NCBI GenBank assembly: GCA_048940925.1
Contig: JBHLOC010000017.1
Span: forward strand, 1-64,000
DNA: 64,000 nucleotides
Direction of reading: 5' to 3'
From: Promethearchaeota archaeon
GTDB lineage: Archaea; Asgardarchaeota; Lokiarchaeia; Sigyniarchaeales; SOKP01
Below are positions 35,571 to 47,912 of the stretch, in pieces. The notes beneath the pieces were generated by a model. It did not search any database. It was not told the DNA's origin and saw only the letters and a program-made list of their open reading frames with translations. A program made the position numbers and the translations under genes. The first letter of the stretch is position 1; every line of letters begins with the position of its first letter.

Positions 35571-35972
35571 TTAGATTTCGCTTAAGTCTCGACTTGCTTT
35601 TATATTAACATTCAATCCTATAACATTGTGGATTAAAATATCCCCCATTTTAATAGGAGCTTTAACAACAGTTTCTGCAATTTCTTTTAACGTTTCTTTA
35701 AGTTTTTCTTTGGGTATTGGTACATTCGATCTCACAGGAATCAAGGGTAAAAATCCATTTTCAACCCTCATTGTAGTTGTCAGAATCCGTTTTGGTGCTA
35801 TAAACTCCTCTCTAGCATATTCCTCACCCCTCTTGCAAGAATGCCCCTCAATAATTAATTCTCCATTTACATTTTCAACATGTACTAAACATCCCGTAGG
35901 ACAAACGATACATCTAATATCCTTAAATCCTTCTGGAAGATTTTGATCATCTTCACTTAATTTAGCTGACAT
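35571..35972 (-). CDS. DUF1667 (CxxC Zn/Fe-binding) protein, third subunit of the GlpA-type operon
   Basis: CIVCPTGC, GHSCKRG..YA, PKRILTTT, APIKMGD. Confidence 0.88.
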   Translation of the reverse strand: MSAKLSEDDQNLPEGFKDIRCIVCPTGCLVHVENVNGELIIEGHSCKRGEEYAREEFIAPKRILTTTMRVENGFLPLIPVRSNVPIPKEKLKETLKEIAETVVKAPIKMGDILIHNVIGLNVNIKASRDLSEI

Positions 35973-35993
35973 TTGTTAAAACCTCATTTATAA

Positions 35994-37292
35994 TTAATCC
36001 TCTTCTATTAGAACTTCTGGACGTGGTATTACTTCAATTTCCAAACTACGACAATCAGATTCTATTTGATGTTCGGCTAAATTTAATTTTAATTCAATCA
36101 TCTCGCTAGGAATGACATAAAGTTTCTTTCTTTTATACAATACTTTGTTGTTATCATCTTTAAACTGAATTTGAATTCTTCTCTCTGGTCTTTTTACTCT
36201 GAATGTGAAAATTATATCCTTAGATAAATCTGATTTATTTATTAAATCAGGTTTAATATAATTAACATTTTCACCTGCTATACATTTAATTTGTTCTTTT
36301 TTTTCTACCCTTTTACCACTTCTTTTATCTACATATTCAACAGCATTCAGTCCTGCTCGTTTTGCTTCAGCAGTTACTAAATCAACCAAATCATGAACTT
36401 GTAAGACATTTCCGCATGCAAATACTCCTTCGATTGTGGATTCTAAATTATTATCTATGATAGGACCTCCCATATCGGAGATAAGTGCTCCTGCATCTCT
36501 CGTTAACTCGTTTTCAGGGATTAAGCCTACAGATAAGAGAAGTGTGTCACATTCGATAAATTTTTCAGAACCTATAACTCTATCAAAATTCCGATCAACT
36601 TTGGAAATGGTAACTCCTTTTACTCTGTCTTTTCCATGAATTTTTGTAACTGTATAACTAGTTATAAGTGGAATGCCATAATCTTCTAAACACTGTACTT
36701 GATTTCTTATTAATCCACTTACATAGGGTTGTATTTCGACCACTGCTTTAACTTGGCAGCCTTCCCATGTAAGTCGGCGAGCCATGATCATACCGATATC
36801 TCCACTACCTAGAATAACAAACATCCTTCCAGGTAAATACCCCTCGATATTCACAAATCTCTGTGCTTGTCCAGCAGTAAAGATTCCCGCAGGTCTAAAG
36901 CCAGGAATATTAATCGCACCCCTAGTTCTTTCTCGACATCCCATAGCAAGGATGATGGCTTTAGCTTTTATTTCAATAAGACCTTCTTTGTTATTAACAG
37001 CGTATAATGTTTTATCTGGAGTAAATTCAATTACCATAGTTTCTAATTTATGAGGGATTTCTAATTCTTTAGCTTGATCGATAAATCTCTGCACATATTC
37101 AGGACCAGTTAATTCTTCTTCAAATTCATGAAGACCGAATCCATTATGAATACATTGGAGAGTAATTCCTCCCAATTCCCTATCTCTTTCTAAAATCATC
37201 ACATTAAGATCAGCTTTTTTAACAACTATAGCAGCTGCTAGACCTGCAGAACCACCTCCAATCACTGCAACATCTACTTCATATTTTTTCAT
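35994..37292 (-). CDS. FAD/NAD(P)-dependent oxidoreductase (NADH-oxidase-like partner of GlpA)
   Basis: GGGSAGLAAA, LQCIHNGFG, LTGPEY, MGCRER, GSGDIG, GLIPENEL, ACGNVLQVHDLVD. Confidence 0.9.
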   Translation of the reverse strand: MKKYEVDVAVIGGGSAGLAAAIVVKKADLNVMILERDRELGGITLQCIHNGFGLHEFEEELTGPEYVQRFIDQAKELEIPHKLETMVIEFTPDKTLYAVNNKEGLIEIKAKAIILAMGCRERTRGAINIPGFRPAGIFTAGQAQRFVNIEGYLPGRMFVILGSGDIGMIMARRLTWEGCQVKAVVEIQPYVSGLIRNQVQCLEDYGIPLITSYTVTKIHGKDRVKGVTISKVDRNFDRVIGSEKFIECDTLLLSVGLIPENELTRDAGALISDMGGPIIDNNLESTIEGVFACGNVLQVHDLVDLVTAEAKRAGLNAVEYVDKRSGKRVEKKEQIKCIAGENVNYIKPDLINKSDLSKDIIFTFRVKRPERRIQIQFKDDNNKVLYKRKKLYVIPSEMIELKLNLAEHQIESDCRSLEIEVIPRPEVLIEED

Positions 37293-38761
37293 TCTTCACT
37301 GGCACCTCTCTTTTCACCTTTTAAAATGAAATCCTTGGTTTTTCTCACCAAAATATAAGTGTCTTCTCCCTTTTTTGTAATTTCTTCATAAGATTTATTT
37401 AATTCCCTTGATAAAATTTCAATAACGCGTGGACGACAGAATCCACCTTGACATCTGCCCATGCCAGGTCTACACCTAAATTTTATGCCGTCTACAGAAT
37501 TAGCTCCAATGGGAGCATGAATCGCATTGATTATCTCTTTTTCCGGTATTGTTTCGCAACGACAAATTATTTTACCCCAAGCTGGATCTTCTTTTATTTT
37601 CTTGTCTAACTCTATTTTTGTAAAATCTTTAAATCTTTCTGGTTTAGGTCGAATTGGATTATAATCCTCCTTGATTTTCAATTCTAATCCCAATAATTCA
37701 AGATAATCAACCACTTTCTCAGCAATTGCAAAAGTTGCTGTAAGACCAGGCGATAAAATTCCAGCGACATTAATAAAACCATAGACATCAGTATTATCTA
37801 TAATAAAATCATAGGTATCTGGAACTGCTCTTAGACCAGCAAAATTCCTTATAGAACTTCTGACAGGAAGATTAGGAACTAATTTTCTCCCTCCTTCTAA
37901 GATTTCTTTTAATCCTGCTGTAGTTGTGGATACATCTTCTAGATCTGTTATGTTCTGAGCATTAGGACCAATGAACGTGTTGCCATGTAAAGTTGGACAT
38001 ACTAAAATCCCTTTAGAAACCTTAGTTGCCATTGGAAATAATATTTTGTTAAGCTGTATTGCATTTCTATCGAATAATATATATTCCCCTTTTCTTGGCA
38101 TTATACTAAAATAATCCAAGCCTAGCATTTTCGATATTTTCGCAGCATAAAGACCTGCAGCATTAATAAGATTGCGTCCTTGGAATTCACCTTTATAGGT
38201 TCGCACGGTGAAGACATAATCTTCATGTTTAATTCTCACAACTTCGTGATTTCTATAGAATTTCACACCATTCATCGCAGCATTATCAGCTAAAGCGAAC
38301 GTCAATTCATAGGGGCTAATAAGTCCAGCGGTTGGAGCATGTAACACACCAACGACTTCATCAGTTAAATTAGGTTCCATTTTTTTTATCTGCTTTTTAT
38401 CAAAAATTAATTCCAGCTCAGGTATCCCATCTTCTGTTCCTTTTTTACGATCTTCCTCCAAAATTTTAATCTGGTCATTTTCAAGTGCAACTACAAAAGA
38501 TCCAATTCGCTTAAAGGGAAAATTTAACTCATTGGCTGCTTGGGTATATAATTTATTTCCTTTAATACATAGATGCCTTTTAATATATTCTCGTGGTGAT
38601 GCATAACCTGCATGCAAAACACCAGAATTTGCTTTGGTTGTTCCAGAAGCCAGTTCTGCCTCTTTTTCTAGCAAACAAACTTTAATATTATACTTTGAAA
38701 GGGTGCGAGCTATACAACATCCTGTTACTCCGCCTCCAATTATTATAACATCGTAAATCAA
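37289..38761 (-). CDS. glpA: FAD-dependent oxidoreductase with BFD-like [2Fe-2S] domain, GlpA-type glycerol-3-phosphate dehydrogenase
   Basis: GGGVTG, TTKANSGVLHAGY, PRKGEY, FAGLRA, SPGLTA; C-terminal ICRCE and MGRCQGGFC. Confidence 0.82.
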   Translation of the reverse strand: MIYDVIIIGGGVTGCCIARTLSKYNIKVCLLEKEAELASGTTKANSGVLHAGYASPREYIKRHLCIKGNKLYTQAANELNFPFKRIGSFVVALENDQIKILEEDRKKGTEDGIPELELIFDKKQIKKMEPNLTDEVVGVLHAPTAGLISPYELTFALADNAAMNGVKFYRNHEVVRIKHEDYVFTVRTYKGEFQGRNLINAAGLYAAKISKMLGLDYFSIMPRKGEYILFDRNAIQLNKILFPMATKVSKGILVCPTLHGNTFIGPNAQNITDLEDVSTTTAGLKEILEGGRKLVPNLPVRSSIRNFAGLRAVPDTYDFIIDNTDVYGFINVAGILSPGLTATFAIAEKVVDYLELLGLELKIKEDYNPIRPKPERFKDFTKIELDKKIKEDPAWGKIICRCETIPEKEIINAIHAPIGANSVDGIKFRCRPGMGRCQGGFCRPRVIEILSRELNKSYEEITKKGEDTYILVRKTKDFILKGEKRGASEE

Positions 38762-42684: not shown

Positions 42685-44400
42685 ATGAAGAAAGAAAAAG
42701 ATTTTAAAAATTTAAGGAATATTAAGCTTACCAGCTGCTTAACCCTTATCCTAAACACATTTTGTATTATATTCGGTTTATTATATATTCTAAAACCTTC
42801 TAGCTCAGTATTTTGGGATTTTATTGGTGTAATTATTACAATTACATTGTTTGAAAATCTTTTATTTGTGTATTTTAACCTTCATAAATCAAACAAATTA
42901 AGCCCAAAGGTGACTATAGTTAGTTATATATATTTGATTTTTATCATTATTGCTATACTATTTATAATTTTAGGAAATTTACTTCTATCTTCAGTATATT
43001 CAAACATTTTTATTGAAAACTTTGGATCTTATTGTATAATTTATTTCAGTTATTTTGGAATTCTACTATATGGAATTTTTTTTGCAGTATTTAATCTCAA
43101 ACAACTGCTTAAGAATGATTTAGAATTCATAAAAAAATCATACAATAAGAAGATAGGAATATTAAAAGTTAAAATGATATTACATAAAATTTTAGTAATA
43201 CTGTCCAAAATTACTTTTTGCATTGGAATTGTATTTGCTATCGTCAATATTTTTGGTTCATTTGGAGTAATAACTGTCTTTATCGCTATAATCTCTTCTC
43301 AATTTGGTCTTTTTTTTTCTATTATATTTTTAGCTAATACAATTCTACTCTTAAAACTAAAAAAACATAAAAGAACTACAAAAAAATTTTATAGAACTGC
43401 TATTATTGGTATTTTTGTATCTGTGTGGTTATCGATGCCATTATTTCTGTCTAATTCCAGTATATACAATGATGATAAAGTGTTTGCTGACGCTTTTGGC
43501 TCAAACTGGCAAACTAGAATTCCTTCTGAAGCAAACCGATTCTTTTTAAAAACTCCTTTTACACTTACGGGATATTATCTTGGTACTGAGCCTAATAACT
43601 GTAAAATTACTAAAAATATATTATTTTATGATGATGAAGGAATAAGCCTTTATTTTGATGCTTACATGCCGTTGAATAAATGGAAACATCTTCCTGGAGA
43701 AAATTCAACAATAATTAGAATCCATGGAGGTAGTTGGGTTTCAGGTGACAAAGGAATGATGAATATGATGCAGATGAATAAGTATTTTGCAAGTCAAGGA
43801 TATGTGGTATTTGATATTCAATATGGACTTGATAGAAATCCATTATTTGAATTAGATCCGCTAACTCCCGATTATAGTAAAGGGAATTTTAATATAGACG
43901 ATATGATGCGACATATTGGTATATTTACAAATTACATTTTTAATCATACAAATGATTACAACGCTAATTTGAATTCTGTATTTATAAGTGGAGGATCTGC
44001 AGGAGGTCATCTCGCATGTGCTGTAGCGTTAGCTATTTCAAGTGGGAATTATACGCATATATTCAATGAACATTTAAAGGTTAAAGGTTTAATCCCCTTT
44101 TACCCCGCAAATGGTCAAATGGTTTTTTTTGGAATCAATGGATGTGATGAATTTAAGAATCCTGAAAAATTAATTGCAAAAAGTAGCCCACCTTGCCTTA
44201 TCTTTCAAGGCACCCATGATATCCTCAATTATTTCAGTATATCTGAAAATATACAAAATACTTACCTTGCTAAAGGAAATAATAAATGTGCTATTTTATG
44301 GATGCCTTTAGCTGGACATGCCGCTGATGTCTATTTTACTGGCTATTATAATCAAATCTTTTTATATTATATGGAACGTTTCATGTTTCTTTACCATTAA
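42685..44400 (+). CDS. Polytopic membrane protein fused to an alpha/beta-hydrolase (HSL-like esterase/lipase)
   Basis: About seven N-terminal TMs; IHGGSW oxyanion motif, GGSAGGH nucleophile, QGTHD, AGHA. Confidence 0.88.
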   Translation: MKKEKDFKNLRNIKLTSCLTLILNTFCIIFGLLYILKPSSSVFWDFIGVIITITLFENLLFVYFNLHKSNKLSPKVTIVSYIYLIFIIIAILFIILGNLLLSSVYSNIFIENFGSYCIIYFSYFGILLYGIFFAVFNLKQLLKNDLEFIKKSYNKKIGILKVKMILHKILVILSKITFCIGIVFAIVNIFGSFGVITVFIAIISSQFGLFFSIIFLANTILLLKLKKHKRTTKKFYRTAIIGIFVSVWLSMPLFLSNSSIYNDDKVFADAFGSNWQTRIPSEANRFFLKTPFTLTGYYLGTEPNNCKITKNILFYDDEGISLYFDAYMPLNKWKHLPGENSTIIRIHGGSWVSGDKGMMNMMQMNKYFASQGYVVFDIQYGLDRNPLFELDPLTPDYSKGNFNIDDMMRHIGIFTNYIFNHTNDYNANLNSVFISGGSAGGHLACAVALAISSGNYTHIFNEHLKVKGLIPFYPANGQMVFFGINGCDEFKNPEKLIAKSSPPCLIFQGTHDILNYFSISENIQNTYLAKGNNKCAILWMPLAGHAADVYFTGYYNQIFLYYMERFMFLYH

Positions 44401-45841: not shown

Positions 45842-47044
45842 ATGGAAGTATTTGACATATTGATTGGTATTTTAAGTATTATAATCGGGTATTTACTAGG
45901 GACAATATTACCTGCTTATTTTTTTGGAAAAATAAAAGGTATAGATGTAAGAGAAGAGGGTACCCGTAATCCTGGAACTTCTAATGCATTTAAAGTTTTA
46001 GGACTTACATATGCTATTCCTACTGCATTGTATGATACATTAAAGGGTTTATTAGCTATCTTAATTGCTTATTATTTGGGAGCAAACTTTATTTTCATGC
46101 AAATTAGTGGATTAGCAGTAATAGTTGGTCATGTTTTTCCTTTTTATTTGAAATTTCGTGGTGGACAAGGAAACGCAACTGCTACTGGAATATTGCTTTT
46201 TTACCTTGTAAATTATCTTTCAGTTGGGTTTCAATTGATTTATGTAATATTATTTTTATTAATACTTGTAGCGATATTTACGTACATTTCTAAAGCAGGT
46301 AGTTTATTACCAATGATTTTATTTCCATTATTGGGTTTTTCTGTGTTTGTGCTTTATCCTACAAGTGGTTTTAATCTTTTTTTTGTAATAATTCTTATTC
46401 ATATCGCTACTATTGGTATGTATAAAGTAATAACGGAAAAGAAATTAGTAATTACTGATGAGGCTTTTCTAGCTAGCTGGTGGAGGGTAGCCATAAGACC
46501 TGTGTCTCTTTTGTTTCTTATATTTTATTTTATGGATAAACAACTTGGTCTTTTTGTCATTGGTATTGTAAGTTTATGCTTTATTGGCTTAGATCTCTTT
46601 CGATTTATTCATAAACGAACTAATATATTATTAACGGAAAAAACTACAGCAATTTTTAGAAAGGGAGAAGAGAAAAGATTTTCTTCAATGACAATCTTCT
46701 TGATATCTACTTTTTTAATATTACTTTTTTTTGATATTGAAATTGCCATAACTGCATTAATTTTTCTTGTTTTTGGAGATTTGTTTGCTAAAGTATTTGG
46801 ATTAGCATATGGGCGTCATAAAATATTTGAAAAAACTCTTGAGGGTAGTCTTGCTAACATAGGGTCAGTAATTATTTTTGGCTATATACTTTTTTTTACA
46901 TTAGATATTCCATTAATCTTGCTTATTTCTGGAGGAATTGCTGCGGTATTAATTGAGCTCTTACCAATAGGGATAAATGATAATTTCACAATCCCTATTA
47001 TAAGTGGAGCTGTTATGACAGCTGTAAAGATTTTCTTCCTCTAA
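45842..47044 (+). CDS. Fusion of a PlsY-like glycerol-3-phosphate acyltransferase and a CTP-dependent lipid kinase (SEC59/DGK1/VTE5 family)
   Basis: N-half: YLLGT, DVREEGTRNPGTSNAFKVLG, DTLKG, GHVFPFYLKFRGGQG. C-half: FRKGEEKR, FGDLFAKVFG, KTLEGS, IELLP..NDNFTIP. Confidence 0.85.
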   Translation: MEVFDILIGILSIIIGYLLGTILPAYFFGKIKGIDVREEGTRNPGTSNAFKVLGLTYAIPTALYDTLKGLLAILIAYYLGANFIFMQISGLAVIVGHVFPFYLKFRGGQGNATATGILLFYLVNYLSVGFQLIYVILFLLILVAIFTYISKAGSLLPMILFPLLGFSVFVLYPTSGFNLFFVIILIHIATIGMYKVITEKKLVITDEAFLASWWRVAIRPVSLLFLIFYFMDKQLGLFVIGIVSLCFIGLDLFRFIHKRTNILLTEKTTAIFRKGEEKRFSSMTIFLISTFLILLFFDIEIAITALIFLVFGDLFAKVFGLAYGRHKIFEKTLEGSLANIGSVIIFGYILFFTLDIPLILLISGGIAAVLIELLPIGINDNFTIPIISGAVMTAVKIFFL

Positions 47045-47168: not shown

Positions 47169-47912
47169 ATGAGTTATATTGAAAAAAAATATACTAAAAA
47201 AATTAACGAGATTTTTGATGATTTAAGAATATTAGATAGTTCTTTACTTAATCAACTAAACAAAAAATCTGTTAAGAATATTAATGAAATTGCTAAAATC
47301 TGTGCTGAGAGTAATAAAAAAATTAACCTTATTCTTAAGAAATTCTATCCTGAAATAAAGGAAATGAGTGATAAATTAAAGATTAAGGCTACTTTAAAAT
47401 TCTACTATGATTTAATTAATAAATTAACTGATTTAGTAAGAAATATGGAGAACTTTAAAAAAATCGACCAAGAATATTATAGTAAGTTAATAGAATTTGT
47501 TAACCAGAAGGAAGAACTAATTTCTGGGAAGTATAAAATGATTTGTACTCAAGAATTAACTGCGTTTTATGATAAAAATTCGAGAGAGAACTTAGAGAGA
47601 ATTTTATTAGAGAAAATTGCGAGAAAAAATGGAGAATTTTTTACTTTTGGCTCTTTAGAACAAGAGATTAAGAAAATAGCCAAAATCACAGGTGCAAATC
47701 ATATCACAATTAAATATGCAAATGAGAATTATAAAAAAGAAATGCAATCTGCAAAATCATTGATTTTATATACTATTTCTGAACATGAAAGTATTGATAA
47801 ATTAAAAAAGATTGGAATGGAAATAAAAAACTTTTTAGAATCCAAAAAATATAACGTTGTTATCAGACCGGGTTTAGTAATTACTAACGCAGAATTACTT
47901 CCCGATGAATAA
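47169..47912 (+). CDS. Hypothetical protein
   Basis: Intact 247-aa helical, Lys-rich ORF directly upstream of proS. Confidence 0.7.
   Translation: MSYIEKKYTKKINEIFDDLRILDSSLLNQLNKKSVKNINEIAKICAESNKKINLILKKFYPEIKEMSDKLKIKATLKFYYDLINKLTDLVRNMENFKKIDQEYYSKLIEFVNQKEELISGKYKMICTQELTAFYDKNSRENLERILLEKIARKNGEFFTFGSLEQEIKKIAKITGANHITIKYANENYKKEMQSAKSLILYTISEHESIDKLKKIGMEIKNFLESKKYNVVIRPGLVITNAELLPDE

Follow-up and report, generated by a model that had tools for sequence, protein, structure and literature searches.

A 64,000-nucleotide stretch of contig JBHLOC010000017.1 from a Promethearchaeota archaeon (assembly GCA_048940925.1; hereafter the window, to whose positions all coordinates refer) encodes a two-part membrane enzyme module in which a domain of the PlsY family of acyltransferases is joined to a lipid-kinase-like domain. 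Judged by its aligned residues, the PlsY-like domain keeps the site that binds acyl-phosphate and has lost most of the grip with which bacterial PlsY holds glycerol-3-phosphate (G3P). Neither the fusion nor the loss of the G3P clamp is mentioned in the openly searchable literature, subscription-only papers lying outside the search.

Architecture of the fusion protein

The open reading frame (ORF) lies exactly where the initial annotation had read it, at 45842-47044 on the forward strand, with an ATG start and 400 amino acids (aa), and every motif string quoted in that reading is found in place. The product has about 14 membrane helices and two domains, whose features are listed below; in equated pairs, the second residue is that of PlsY from Aquifex aeolicus (aaPlsY).

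45842..47044, forward strand: fusion protein P0001, PlsY-like and lipid-kinase-like; the complete ORF of 400 aa with its stop codon
45842..46435, forward strand: N-terminal PlsY-family domain; residues 1-198, seven predicted helices; match to PF02660, and to 5xj5 by sequence and fold
45959..45994, forward strand: PlsY motif 1, GTRNPGTSNAFK; Thr41 = Ser35, Asn43 = oxyanion Asn37, Thr46-Ser47 = Ala40-Thr41, Lys51 = Arg45
46130..46132, forward strand: His97 = His92, the acyl-phosphate binder; invariant in 97 fusions
46154..46180, forward strand: PlsY motif 2, the phosphate-hole loop FRGGQGNAT; Gly/Ala backbone positions invariant, Lys104 replaced by Gln109
46400..46417, forward strand: remnant of PlsY motif 3, HIATIG; His187 kept, Asn180 position occupied by Thr190
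46436..47041, forward strand: putative kinase-like domain of CdsA/CarS fold, similar to Sec59/VTE5/Dgk1; residues 199-400, including a basic cytoplasmic linker
46775..46849, forward strand: kinase-type motif GDLFAKVFGLAYGRHKIFEKTLEGS; Asp313, Lys317, Gly320, Gly324, Lys331, Glu334 and Gly335 invariant or nearly so
46955..46996, forward strand: second kinase-type motif ELLPIGINDNFTIP; Glu372 and Asn381 invariant, Asp380 in 96/97

The protein has 514 homologues, the best 120 of which are about 400 aa long and 60-93% identical to it; because many homologues share this length and both halves are under strong constraint, the fusion is a genuine gene rather than an ORF that arose by chance. Its loops carry 22 lysines and arginines on one side of the membrane versus one on the other, and the conserved motifs of both domains all lie on the basic side, which is presumably cytoplasmic and would hold both catalytic faces. 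The fusion was modelled with AlphaFold2 from an alignment that included 24 homologues, giving a predicted local distance difference test (pLDDT) score of 79.

The PlsY-like N-terminal domain

The proposed PlsY identity of the N-terminal half is borne out by both sequence and fold. Residues 15-189 match Pfam PF02660 (G3P_acyltransf / PlsY) with an E-value of 1.3e-33 and 116.8 bits, against a gathering cut-off of 24.1, and the aaPlsY structure 5xj5 is matched by sequence at E 4e-15. In a Foldseek comparison of the AlphaFold2 model with the PlsY structures 5xj5-5xj8, E-values range from 4.5e-6 to 2.6e-5 and template-modelling scores by target from 0.64 to 0.67. The domain therefore shares the seven-helix fold of bacterial PlsY (PF02660; Aquifex aeolicus structures 5XJ5-5XJ9), from which it differs in carrying a second enzyme domain and in falling below the cut-off of the NCBIfam PlsY equivalog TIGR00023 (104 bits versus 137.2).

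The conservation of functional sites was followed in alignments of 97 fusions (77 archaeal and 20 bacterial), using the residue roles given in the aaPlsY structure paper (PMC5700162). On the donor side, His97, Gly107, Gly108, Gly110, Ala112 and Asn48 (the equivalent of Asn42) are invariant, and Thr46 is present in all but one sequence (96/97), so that the loop F-[RK]-G-G-x-G-x-A, His92 and Asn42 of bacterial PlsY are kept throughout. The equivalent of the oxyanion residue Asn37, Asn43 in the window protein, is retained in 84 of the 97. At the position of Thr41, whose hydroxyl binds the acyl carbonyl in bacterial PlsY, the hydroxyl may have moved or been lost: the window protein has Ser47, the archaeal fusions have S, A, V, T, M or L, and the bacterial ones V, M, I or L. 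The conserved neighbour Thr46 might substitute for it, and the T41S mutant of aaPlsY keeps about half of its activity (PMC5700162).

The acceptor side is different. The G3P phosphate clamp, built in bacterial PlsY from Ser35, Arg45, Lys104 and Asn180, reads Thr41, Lys51, Gln109 and Thr190 in the window protein, and all four sites are variable in the family. The Ser35 position is occupied by T, D or S and the Arg45 position by K, R, H, I, L, N or Q; glutamine replaces Lys104 in 74 of the 97 fusions, and neither alignment puts an Asn at the Asn180 position in any of them. The position of His177, which binds the 2-OH of G3P, is His187 in the window protein and H, Y, F or Q in the family, the alignment of motif 3 differing between runs. 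In aaPlsY, alanine at any clamp residue costs more than 92% of activity, S35T leaves 17%, and R45K loses more than 90% (PMC5700162).

Several Asgard loci (L041, L043, L046, L066) contain tandem arrays of two to four fusion copies, and these paralogues differ from one another at the acceptor-pocket positions 51 (K/H/N), 109 (Q/K/R), 187 (H/Y/F/L/Q) and 190. They share the same donor-site residues and most of the kinase-motif residues, one copy having Gly at position 380. With the G3P clamp lost and the pocket differing from one paralogue to another, canonically bound G3P is probably not the acceptor. The synthesis of G3P ester lipids, which the initial annotation had proposed for this gene, is accordingly doubtful, an intact G3P pocket being largely missing.

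The C-terminal kinase-like domain

The C-terminal half had been read as a CTP-dependent lipid kinase, and a comparison with the family profile had been proposed as a check. The protein fails that check: Pfam and NCBIfam searches with residues 195-400 return no family at E <= 10, including PF01148 (CTP_transf_1) and PF01864, and a search of PDB sequences with a profile of the C-terminal half gives 0 matches at the same threshold. Relatives of this half do give weak PF01148 scores, of 23.6 bits (cut-off 24) and with E-values of 0.0018 and 0.038.

When the half was modelled alone (AlphaFold2, pLDDT 78), a Foldseek search of the PDB found nothing at E <= 0.001, CdsA reaching only E 0.7. VIA-align ranked CdsA (4q2e_A) first among 48,161 chains (Z 9.6 over 175 aligned residues) and put CDP-archaeol synthase, CarS (5guf_A), at Z 7.0, a root-mean-square deviation of 3.2 and 19% identity, in a range where caution applies because Z-values below about 13 are common among helical proteins. 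No kinase of the CdsA/CarS/Sec59 superfamily appears among these solved-structure matches. In the ESM Atlas, neither a feature search nor a shape search turned up anything beyond uncharacterised relatives of 176-224 aa that stand alone, and the cluster names of such relatives are mostly blank, or "PlsY" by transfer.

In a profile-profile comparison with hhalign, the C-terminal profile aligns to the family of P0273, which bears the JGI name "dolichol kinase", at 94.9% probability and E 4.2e-8 over 153 columns, versus 0.2% and no profile similarity for the same genome's own CarS. P0273 is a separate paralogue of 361 aa in the source genome (G000:C77:73635-74720, also L003:982-2067); its KTLIGY stands in place of the KTLEGS of the fusion, and so is without the Glu of that motif.

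The motif residues themselves are highly conserved. The pattern is GD..A...G...G, then KT.EG[ST], then E.......DN; Asp313, Lys317, Gly324, Lys331, Gly335, Glu372 and Asn381 are invariant in the 97 fusions, Gly320 and Asp380 are present in 96 and Glu334 in 95. We take the combination of D-x2-A-x3-G-x3-G with K-T-x-E-G-[ST] and D-N, which is that of the dolichol kinases, to be of the kinase type. By its predicted fold, the weak PF01148 scores of its relatives, the profile match to P0273 and these motif residues, the domain is assigned to the CdsA/CarS/Sec59 (CTP_transf_1) superfamily, and the word "kinase" is well motivated by the motifs and by homology to relatives that are themselves only annotated as such.

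Compared with Sec59/DOLK (dolichol kinase), VTE5/FOLK (phytol/farnesol kinase) and Dgk1 (diacylglycerol kinase), the domain has in common the motif pattern, the cytoplasmic face and a multi-helix membrane domain. It differs in being minimal, at about 190 aa and seven helices, in escaping recognition by PF01148, in always travelling with a PlsY-like partner, and in that it may act on a carboxylate where those enzymes act on alcohols. With CdsA (4Q2E, CDP-diacylglycerol synthase) and CarS (5GUF, CDP-archaeol synthase), its best matches of solved structure, it shares the superfamily fold; unlike them it carries kinase-type motifs, with neither a sequence-level match to the CarS of its own genome nor the CdsA signature.

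Coupling of the two domains

When 1.84 billion representatives were searched with a profile of the C-terminal half, 3770 relatives were retrieved. Among them are fusions about 400 aa long, proteins of about 190 aa that stand alone, and a fusion in reverse order (P0258, with the kinase-like domain at 30-206 and PlsY at 226-390). Where a stand-alone kinase-like gene has usable context, a PF02660 gene lies directly upstream on the same strand (3/3 contigs), with gaps of -16, +60 and -4 nucleotides; one of these split pairs is on a contig labelled Woesearchaeota (DPANN). In a single case, a split PlsY-like / kinase-like pair (L112:2390-5077) stands beside a 480-aa PF13685 gene (Fe-ADH_2, the glycerol-1-phosphate dehydrogenase family) on the opposite strand.

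Because the same pair occurs fused, reverse-fused and split in adjacent genes, one coupled function for both domains is indicated, and it can be strongly argued that the two domains form a real functional module. The initial claim that both are genuine and work together is supported.

Distribution and phylogeny

We surveyed 151 Asgard genomes, scoring the fusion-type C-terminal domain at E <= 1e-25. The domain is confined to one of the 27 families sampled, the GTDB family of the window itself, where it occurs in 15 of 25 other members; it was found in 0 of 125 genomes from the 26 other families. A wide Asgard spread, as suggested by metagenome-assembled genomes (MAGs) labelled Thor-, Odin-, Hod- and Hermodarchaeota that carry the fusion, was considered and rejected: prolyl-tRNA synthetase (ProRS) and transcription factor B (TFB) in these genomes are 77-91% and 88-97% identical to those of the window. 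The MAGs concerned (among the JBHL... records, L009, L015, L022, L024 and others) thus belong with the source genome to one lineage of close kin, and their labels look unreliable.

Outside the archaea, full-length fusions with 39-49% identity are carried by MAGs whose labels read Aminicenantes, WOR-3, Caldithrix or Eubacteriales; those under the first three labels have the same N-to-C order. Five bacterial carrier genomes all possess a canonical PlsY of about 200 aa (5/5), and four of the five have PlsX, as four of the five have DegV. Since bacterial carriers keep canonical PlsY, PlsX and DegV, the fusion is to be seen as an accessory enzyme and not as a stand-in for the housekeeping PlsY with which it coexists.

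A FastTree analysis of PlsY domains, a quick tree of a sample only, groups all fusion N-terminal domains with a stand-alone subtype from Aminicenantes, as a single clade distinct from canonical PlsY (support 0.91). Within it, the archaeal fusions form a single clade (0.94) nested among bacterial fusions (0.83-0.99), a branching pattern that suggests transfer of the fusion from bacteria to this Lokiarchaeial-type archaeal family.

The sister stand-alone subtype offers a further lead. In two of its six loci (L104:2722-5737 and L109:2175-5109, both in Aminicenantes MAGs and with differing flanking genes), the PlsY-like gene lies directly behind a 772-aa fusion of DegV and Dak2, that is, a FakB-FakA fatty-acid kinase. 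A maker of acyl-phosphate here occupies the slot that the kinase-like domain holds in the fusion, which is a lead and not proof.

Genome setting and neighbourhood

Markers put the source genome at 100% completeness and 8.4% contamination; it has one gene of the PlsY family. Neither PlsX (PF02504) nor DegV/FakB (PF02645) was found in it, and PlsX was found in 0 of the 31 genomes searched in its family, the source genome included. It also has GGGPS and CarS, genes of the standard archaeal lipid pathway. A PF01553 acyltransferase (PlsC-type) was not found in the source assembly; PF01553 genes are present in 28 of 30 family relatives, including all three genomes of the same genus, and its absence may be due to recent loss or to a gap in the assembly. 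ORFs of about 560 aa with two tandem PF01553 matches (G070:C127, G143:C65 and others, L097, L098), some of which may be two adjacent genes, occur in the majority of the family's genomes, the three of the same genus among them, but were not found in the source assembly.

The genes around the fusion that are relevant to what follows are these:

35571-38761, reverse strand: GlpA-type trio of DAO + BFD [2Fe-2S] (490 aa), Pyr_redox_2 (432 aa) and DUF1667 (133 aa)
42685..44400, forward strand: 571-aa membrane esterase; multi-helix N-terminal half and HSL-type alpha/beta-hydrolase C-terminal half with HGG and GGSAGG; Pfam BD-FAE / Abhydrolase_3
47169..47912, forward strand: 247-aa soluble K/E-rich protein; no Pfam family

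The conserved Asgard block runs in the order flavin adenine dinucleotide (FAD)-oxidase, LarA, membrane esterase, TFB, fusion (one to four copies), 247-aa protein and ProRS. The esterase recurs in 26 of 60 Asgard loci; in one clade it directly adjoins the fusion. The 247-aa protein is found in 49 of the 60, in 35 of them directly downstream of the fusion, between it and proS; it may be a partner of the fusion, or merely syntenic. The trio 7 kb upstream is likely to encode an anaerobic complex of the G3P dehydrogenase type. The bacterial gene context of the fusion (NnrD, TsaE, gap-pgk-tpiA-secG) is housekeeping and gives no specific clue.

A possible mechanism and its alternatives

We tentatively favour a reading, though at somewhat less than even chances, in which the kinase-like domain makes acyl-phosphate and the PlsY-like domain acylates an acceptor held in a pocket that is not of the G3P type. 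The C-terminal domain would phosphorylate a membrane lipid in the cytoplasmic leaflet to give a labile lipid phosphate, and the most parsimonious substrate would be a free fatty acid, converted to acyl-phosphate. The PlsY-like domain would take this labile intermediate directly and move its acyl group to the acceptor, which, the acceptor pocket having been remodelled, would not be bound as G3P is. In this scheme, we infer the kinase substrate, the hand-over of the intermediate and the acceptor from what is observed, namely which domains are present and that they are coupled, which site residues are conserved, how the fusion is distributed, and that bacteria keep the canonical pathway beside it. 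Acyl-phosphate is unstable (PMC13400652), and this instability would create a pressure to fuse the two steps. A kinase that feeds the PlsY-like domain is a reasonable idea because PlsX and FakB were not found in the source genome and PlsX was found in none of the 31 family genomes. Bacterial carriers keep PlsY, PlsX and DegV alongside the fusion, so that it does not simply take the place of that pathway. The module is probably an accessory salvage or remodelling system of bacterial origin. The same logic is known from Gram-positive bacteria, where FakA/FakB incorporates exogenous fatty acids by making acyl-phosphate for a PlsY-type transferase; the kinase-like domain of the fusion differs in being non-homologous, membrane-embedded and presumably CTP-using, so that the likeness lies in the proposed workings and not in membership. 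If so, it would be a third, non-homologous route to acyl-phosphate beside PlsX and FakAB, namely a membrane CTP-dependent fatty-acid kinase of the dolichol-kinase superfamily that serves acylation of something other than G3P, a proposal we consider possible but on balance unlikely.

Support for acyl-phosphate production and transfer by the fusion comes from the coupling of the domains in three architectures, from the conserved donor site and kinase residues, from the placing of all conserved motifs on the basic side of the membrane, from the acceptor-pocket differences between tandem paralogues, from FakB-FakA at the sister clade and from the recurrent membrane esterase neighbour. Several observations pull the other way. 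No characterised member of the Sec59/VTE5/Dgk1 group is known to phosphorylate a carboxylate, all known ones acting on lipid alcohols. The hydroxyl of Thr41 that binds the acyl carbonyl is not conserved in the fusions, and the kinase call depends on motifs and on homology to an annotated family, with PF01148 giving no match in the window protein. In bacterial carriers that have PlsX and DegV (four of five for each), a second route to acyl-phosphate needs a special reason; the FakB-FakA adjacency is absent from four of the six sister-clade loci; and common descent alone may account for much of the Asgard synteny.

Four other explanations were considered. The first is that of the initial annotation, in which the acyl-phosphate made by the kinase domain is used by the PlsY domain to acylate G3P (or glycerol-1-phosphate, G1P) to lysophosphatidic acid, a self-contained opening reaction for bacterial-type ester lipids that would bypass PlsX. 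This we regard as rather unlikely. The substitutes Thr41, Lys51 and His187 in the window protein are conservative, the GlpA-type trio lies close by, PlsC-type acyltransferases are present in nearly all family relatives, one split pair has a PF13685 neighbour, and bacterial PlsY takes both stereoisomers of glycerol phosphate (PMC13400652). Yet Gln replaces Lys104, the Asn180 site is not Asn, and the Ser35 and Arg45 positions vary to include Asp, Ile and Leu, when single clamp mutations in aaPlsY each abolish more than 90% of activity, or leave 17% in the case of S35T (PMC5700162). Moreover, no PF01553 acyltransferase was found in the source assembly, bacterial carriers of the fusion keep a canonical PlsY, and the cultured Lokiarchaeon showed archaeal lipids only (as cited in PMC13400652). 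A salvage of isoprenoids, quite unlikely in our estimation, would instead have the kinase domain phosphorylate a prenol (geranylgeraniol, phytol, polyprenol or dolichol) and the PlsY-like domain hold the prenyl phosphate in its phosphate hole and pass the lipid on, for example to a glycerol backbone. It accords with the lipid-alcohol specificity of all characterised relatives (VTE5, FOLK, Sec59, PfPolK; PMC10849223), with the known prenol kinase activity of archaea (PMC9782597), and with the lack of conservation of the residue that binds the acyl carbonyl. The occurrence of a split pair on a Woesearchaeota-labelled contig also fits, DPANN archaea being a group that probably depends on scavenged lipids. 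Against this, the genome already has the separate "dolichol kinase"-type paralogue P0273, and the fusion keeps its counterpart of the oxyanion residue Asn37, which is characteristic of acyl transfer. In two of six loci the sister clade has a fatty-acid kinase as its partner, and the fusion is also common among bacteria, organisms with ester lipids; alkyl transfer from a monophosphate is not known for any PlsY-family enzyme.

Dgk1 belongs to the same CTP-dependent kinase group, and the kinase domain could, like it, use archaeol or mono- and diacylglycerol that have been scavenged and rephosphorylate them to phosphatidate forms, with the PlsY-like domain acting as an independent acyltransferase on the same pool. 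The membrane esterase next door and the monoacylglycerol seen in the PlsY active site in crystals (title of 5xj5) would suit such a role, but it leaves unexplained why the domains stay together in three architectures, and the PlsY-like domain would still be without a donor, PlsX and Fak not having been found; we hold it to be improbable. Least probable of all is that the C-terminal half is a cytidylyltransferase like CdsA or CarS, making a CDP-activated lipid downstream of the PlsY-like step. Its best structural matches are indeed CdsA (Z 9.6) and CarS (Z 7.0), and a neighbouring Atlas cluster is automatically named "phosphatidate cytidylyltransferase family"; but with no kinase of the superfamily among the solved-structure matches, the fold cannot tell a kinase from a cytidylyltransferase. 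Residues 199-400 are without the CdsA signature of PROSITE, K-R..K-D..H-G-G..D-R.D, and read E....NDN instead, there is no PF01864 match, and the profile probabilities diverge widely between the genome's own CarS and the kinase-type paralogue family.

Biological meaning

Papers on Asgard lipids treat the PlsY gene of Loki-type archaea as an ordinary PlsY homologue and cite it as a hint of bacterial-type ester lipids in the archaeal ancestor of eukaryotes (PMC6431249, PMC6737245, PMC13400652). This much-cited annotation needs to be reread as that of a two-domain fusion with an unconserved G3P clamp. Because it is a fusion, because the clamp is not conserved, and because it occurs in one of the Asgard families sampled, with the archaeal copies nested among bacterial ones, it counts only weakly as evidence that the ancestor of eukaryotes had a G3P ester-lipid pathway, and the link to eukaryogenesis drawn in the initial annotation is correspondingly weak. 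Of that interpretation as a whole, the reality and coupling of both domains are supported, as is the idea of a feeding kinase in a genome where PlsX and FakB are not found; an intact G3P pocket and the simple replacement of a pathway are not supported.

The fusion is probably not the ordinary first step of bacterial lipid synthesis; rather, it is probably a lipid salvage device derived from bacteria. If the fatty-acid kinase reading is true, the Asgard "PlsY" would make a different and so far unseen acylated product. By the labels of the records, the module is widespread, extending over Asgard archaea, Woesearchaeota (DPANN), Aminicenantes, WOR-3 and Caldithrix, and the fusion is a concrete, assayable candidate for a new route of lipid activation and transfer in lipid-scavenging organisms.

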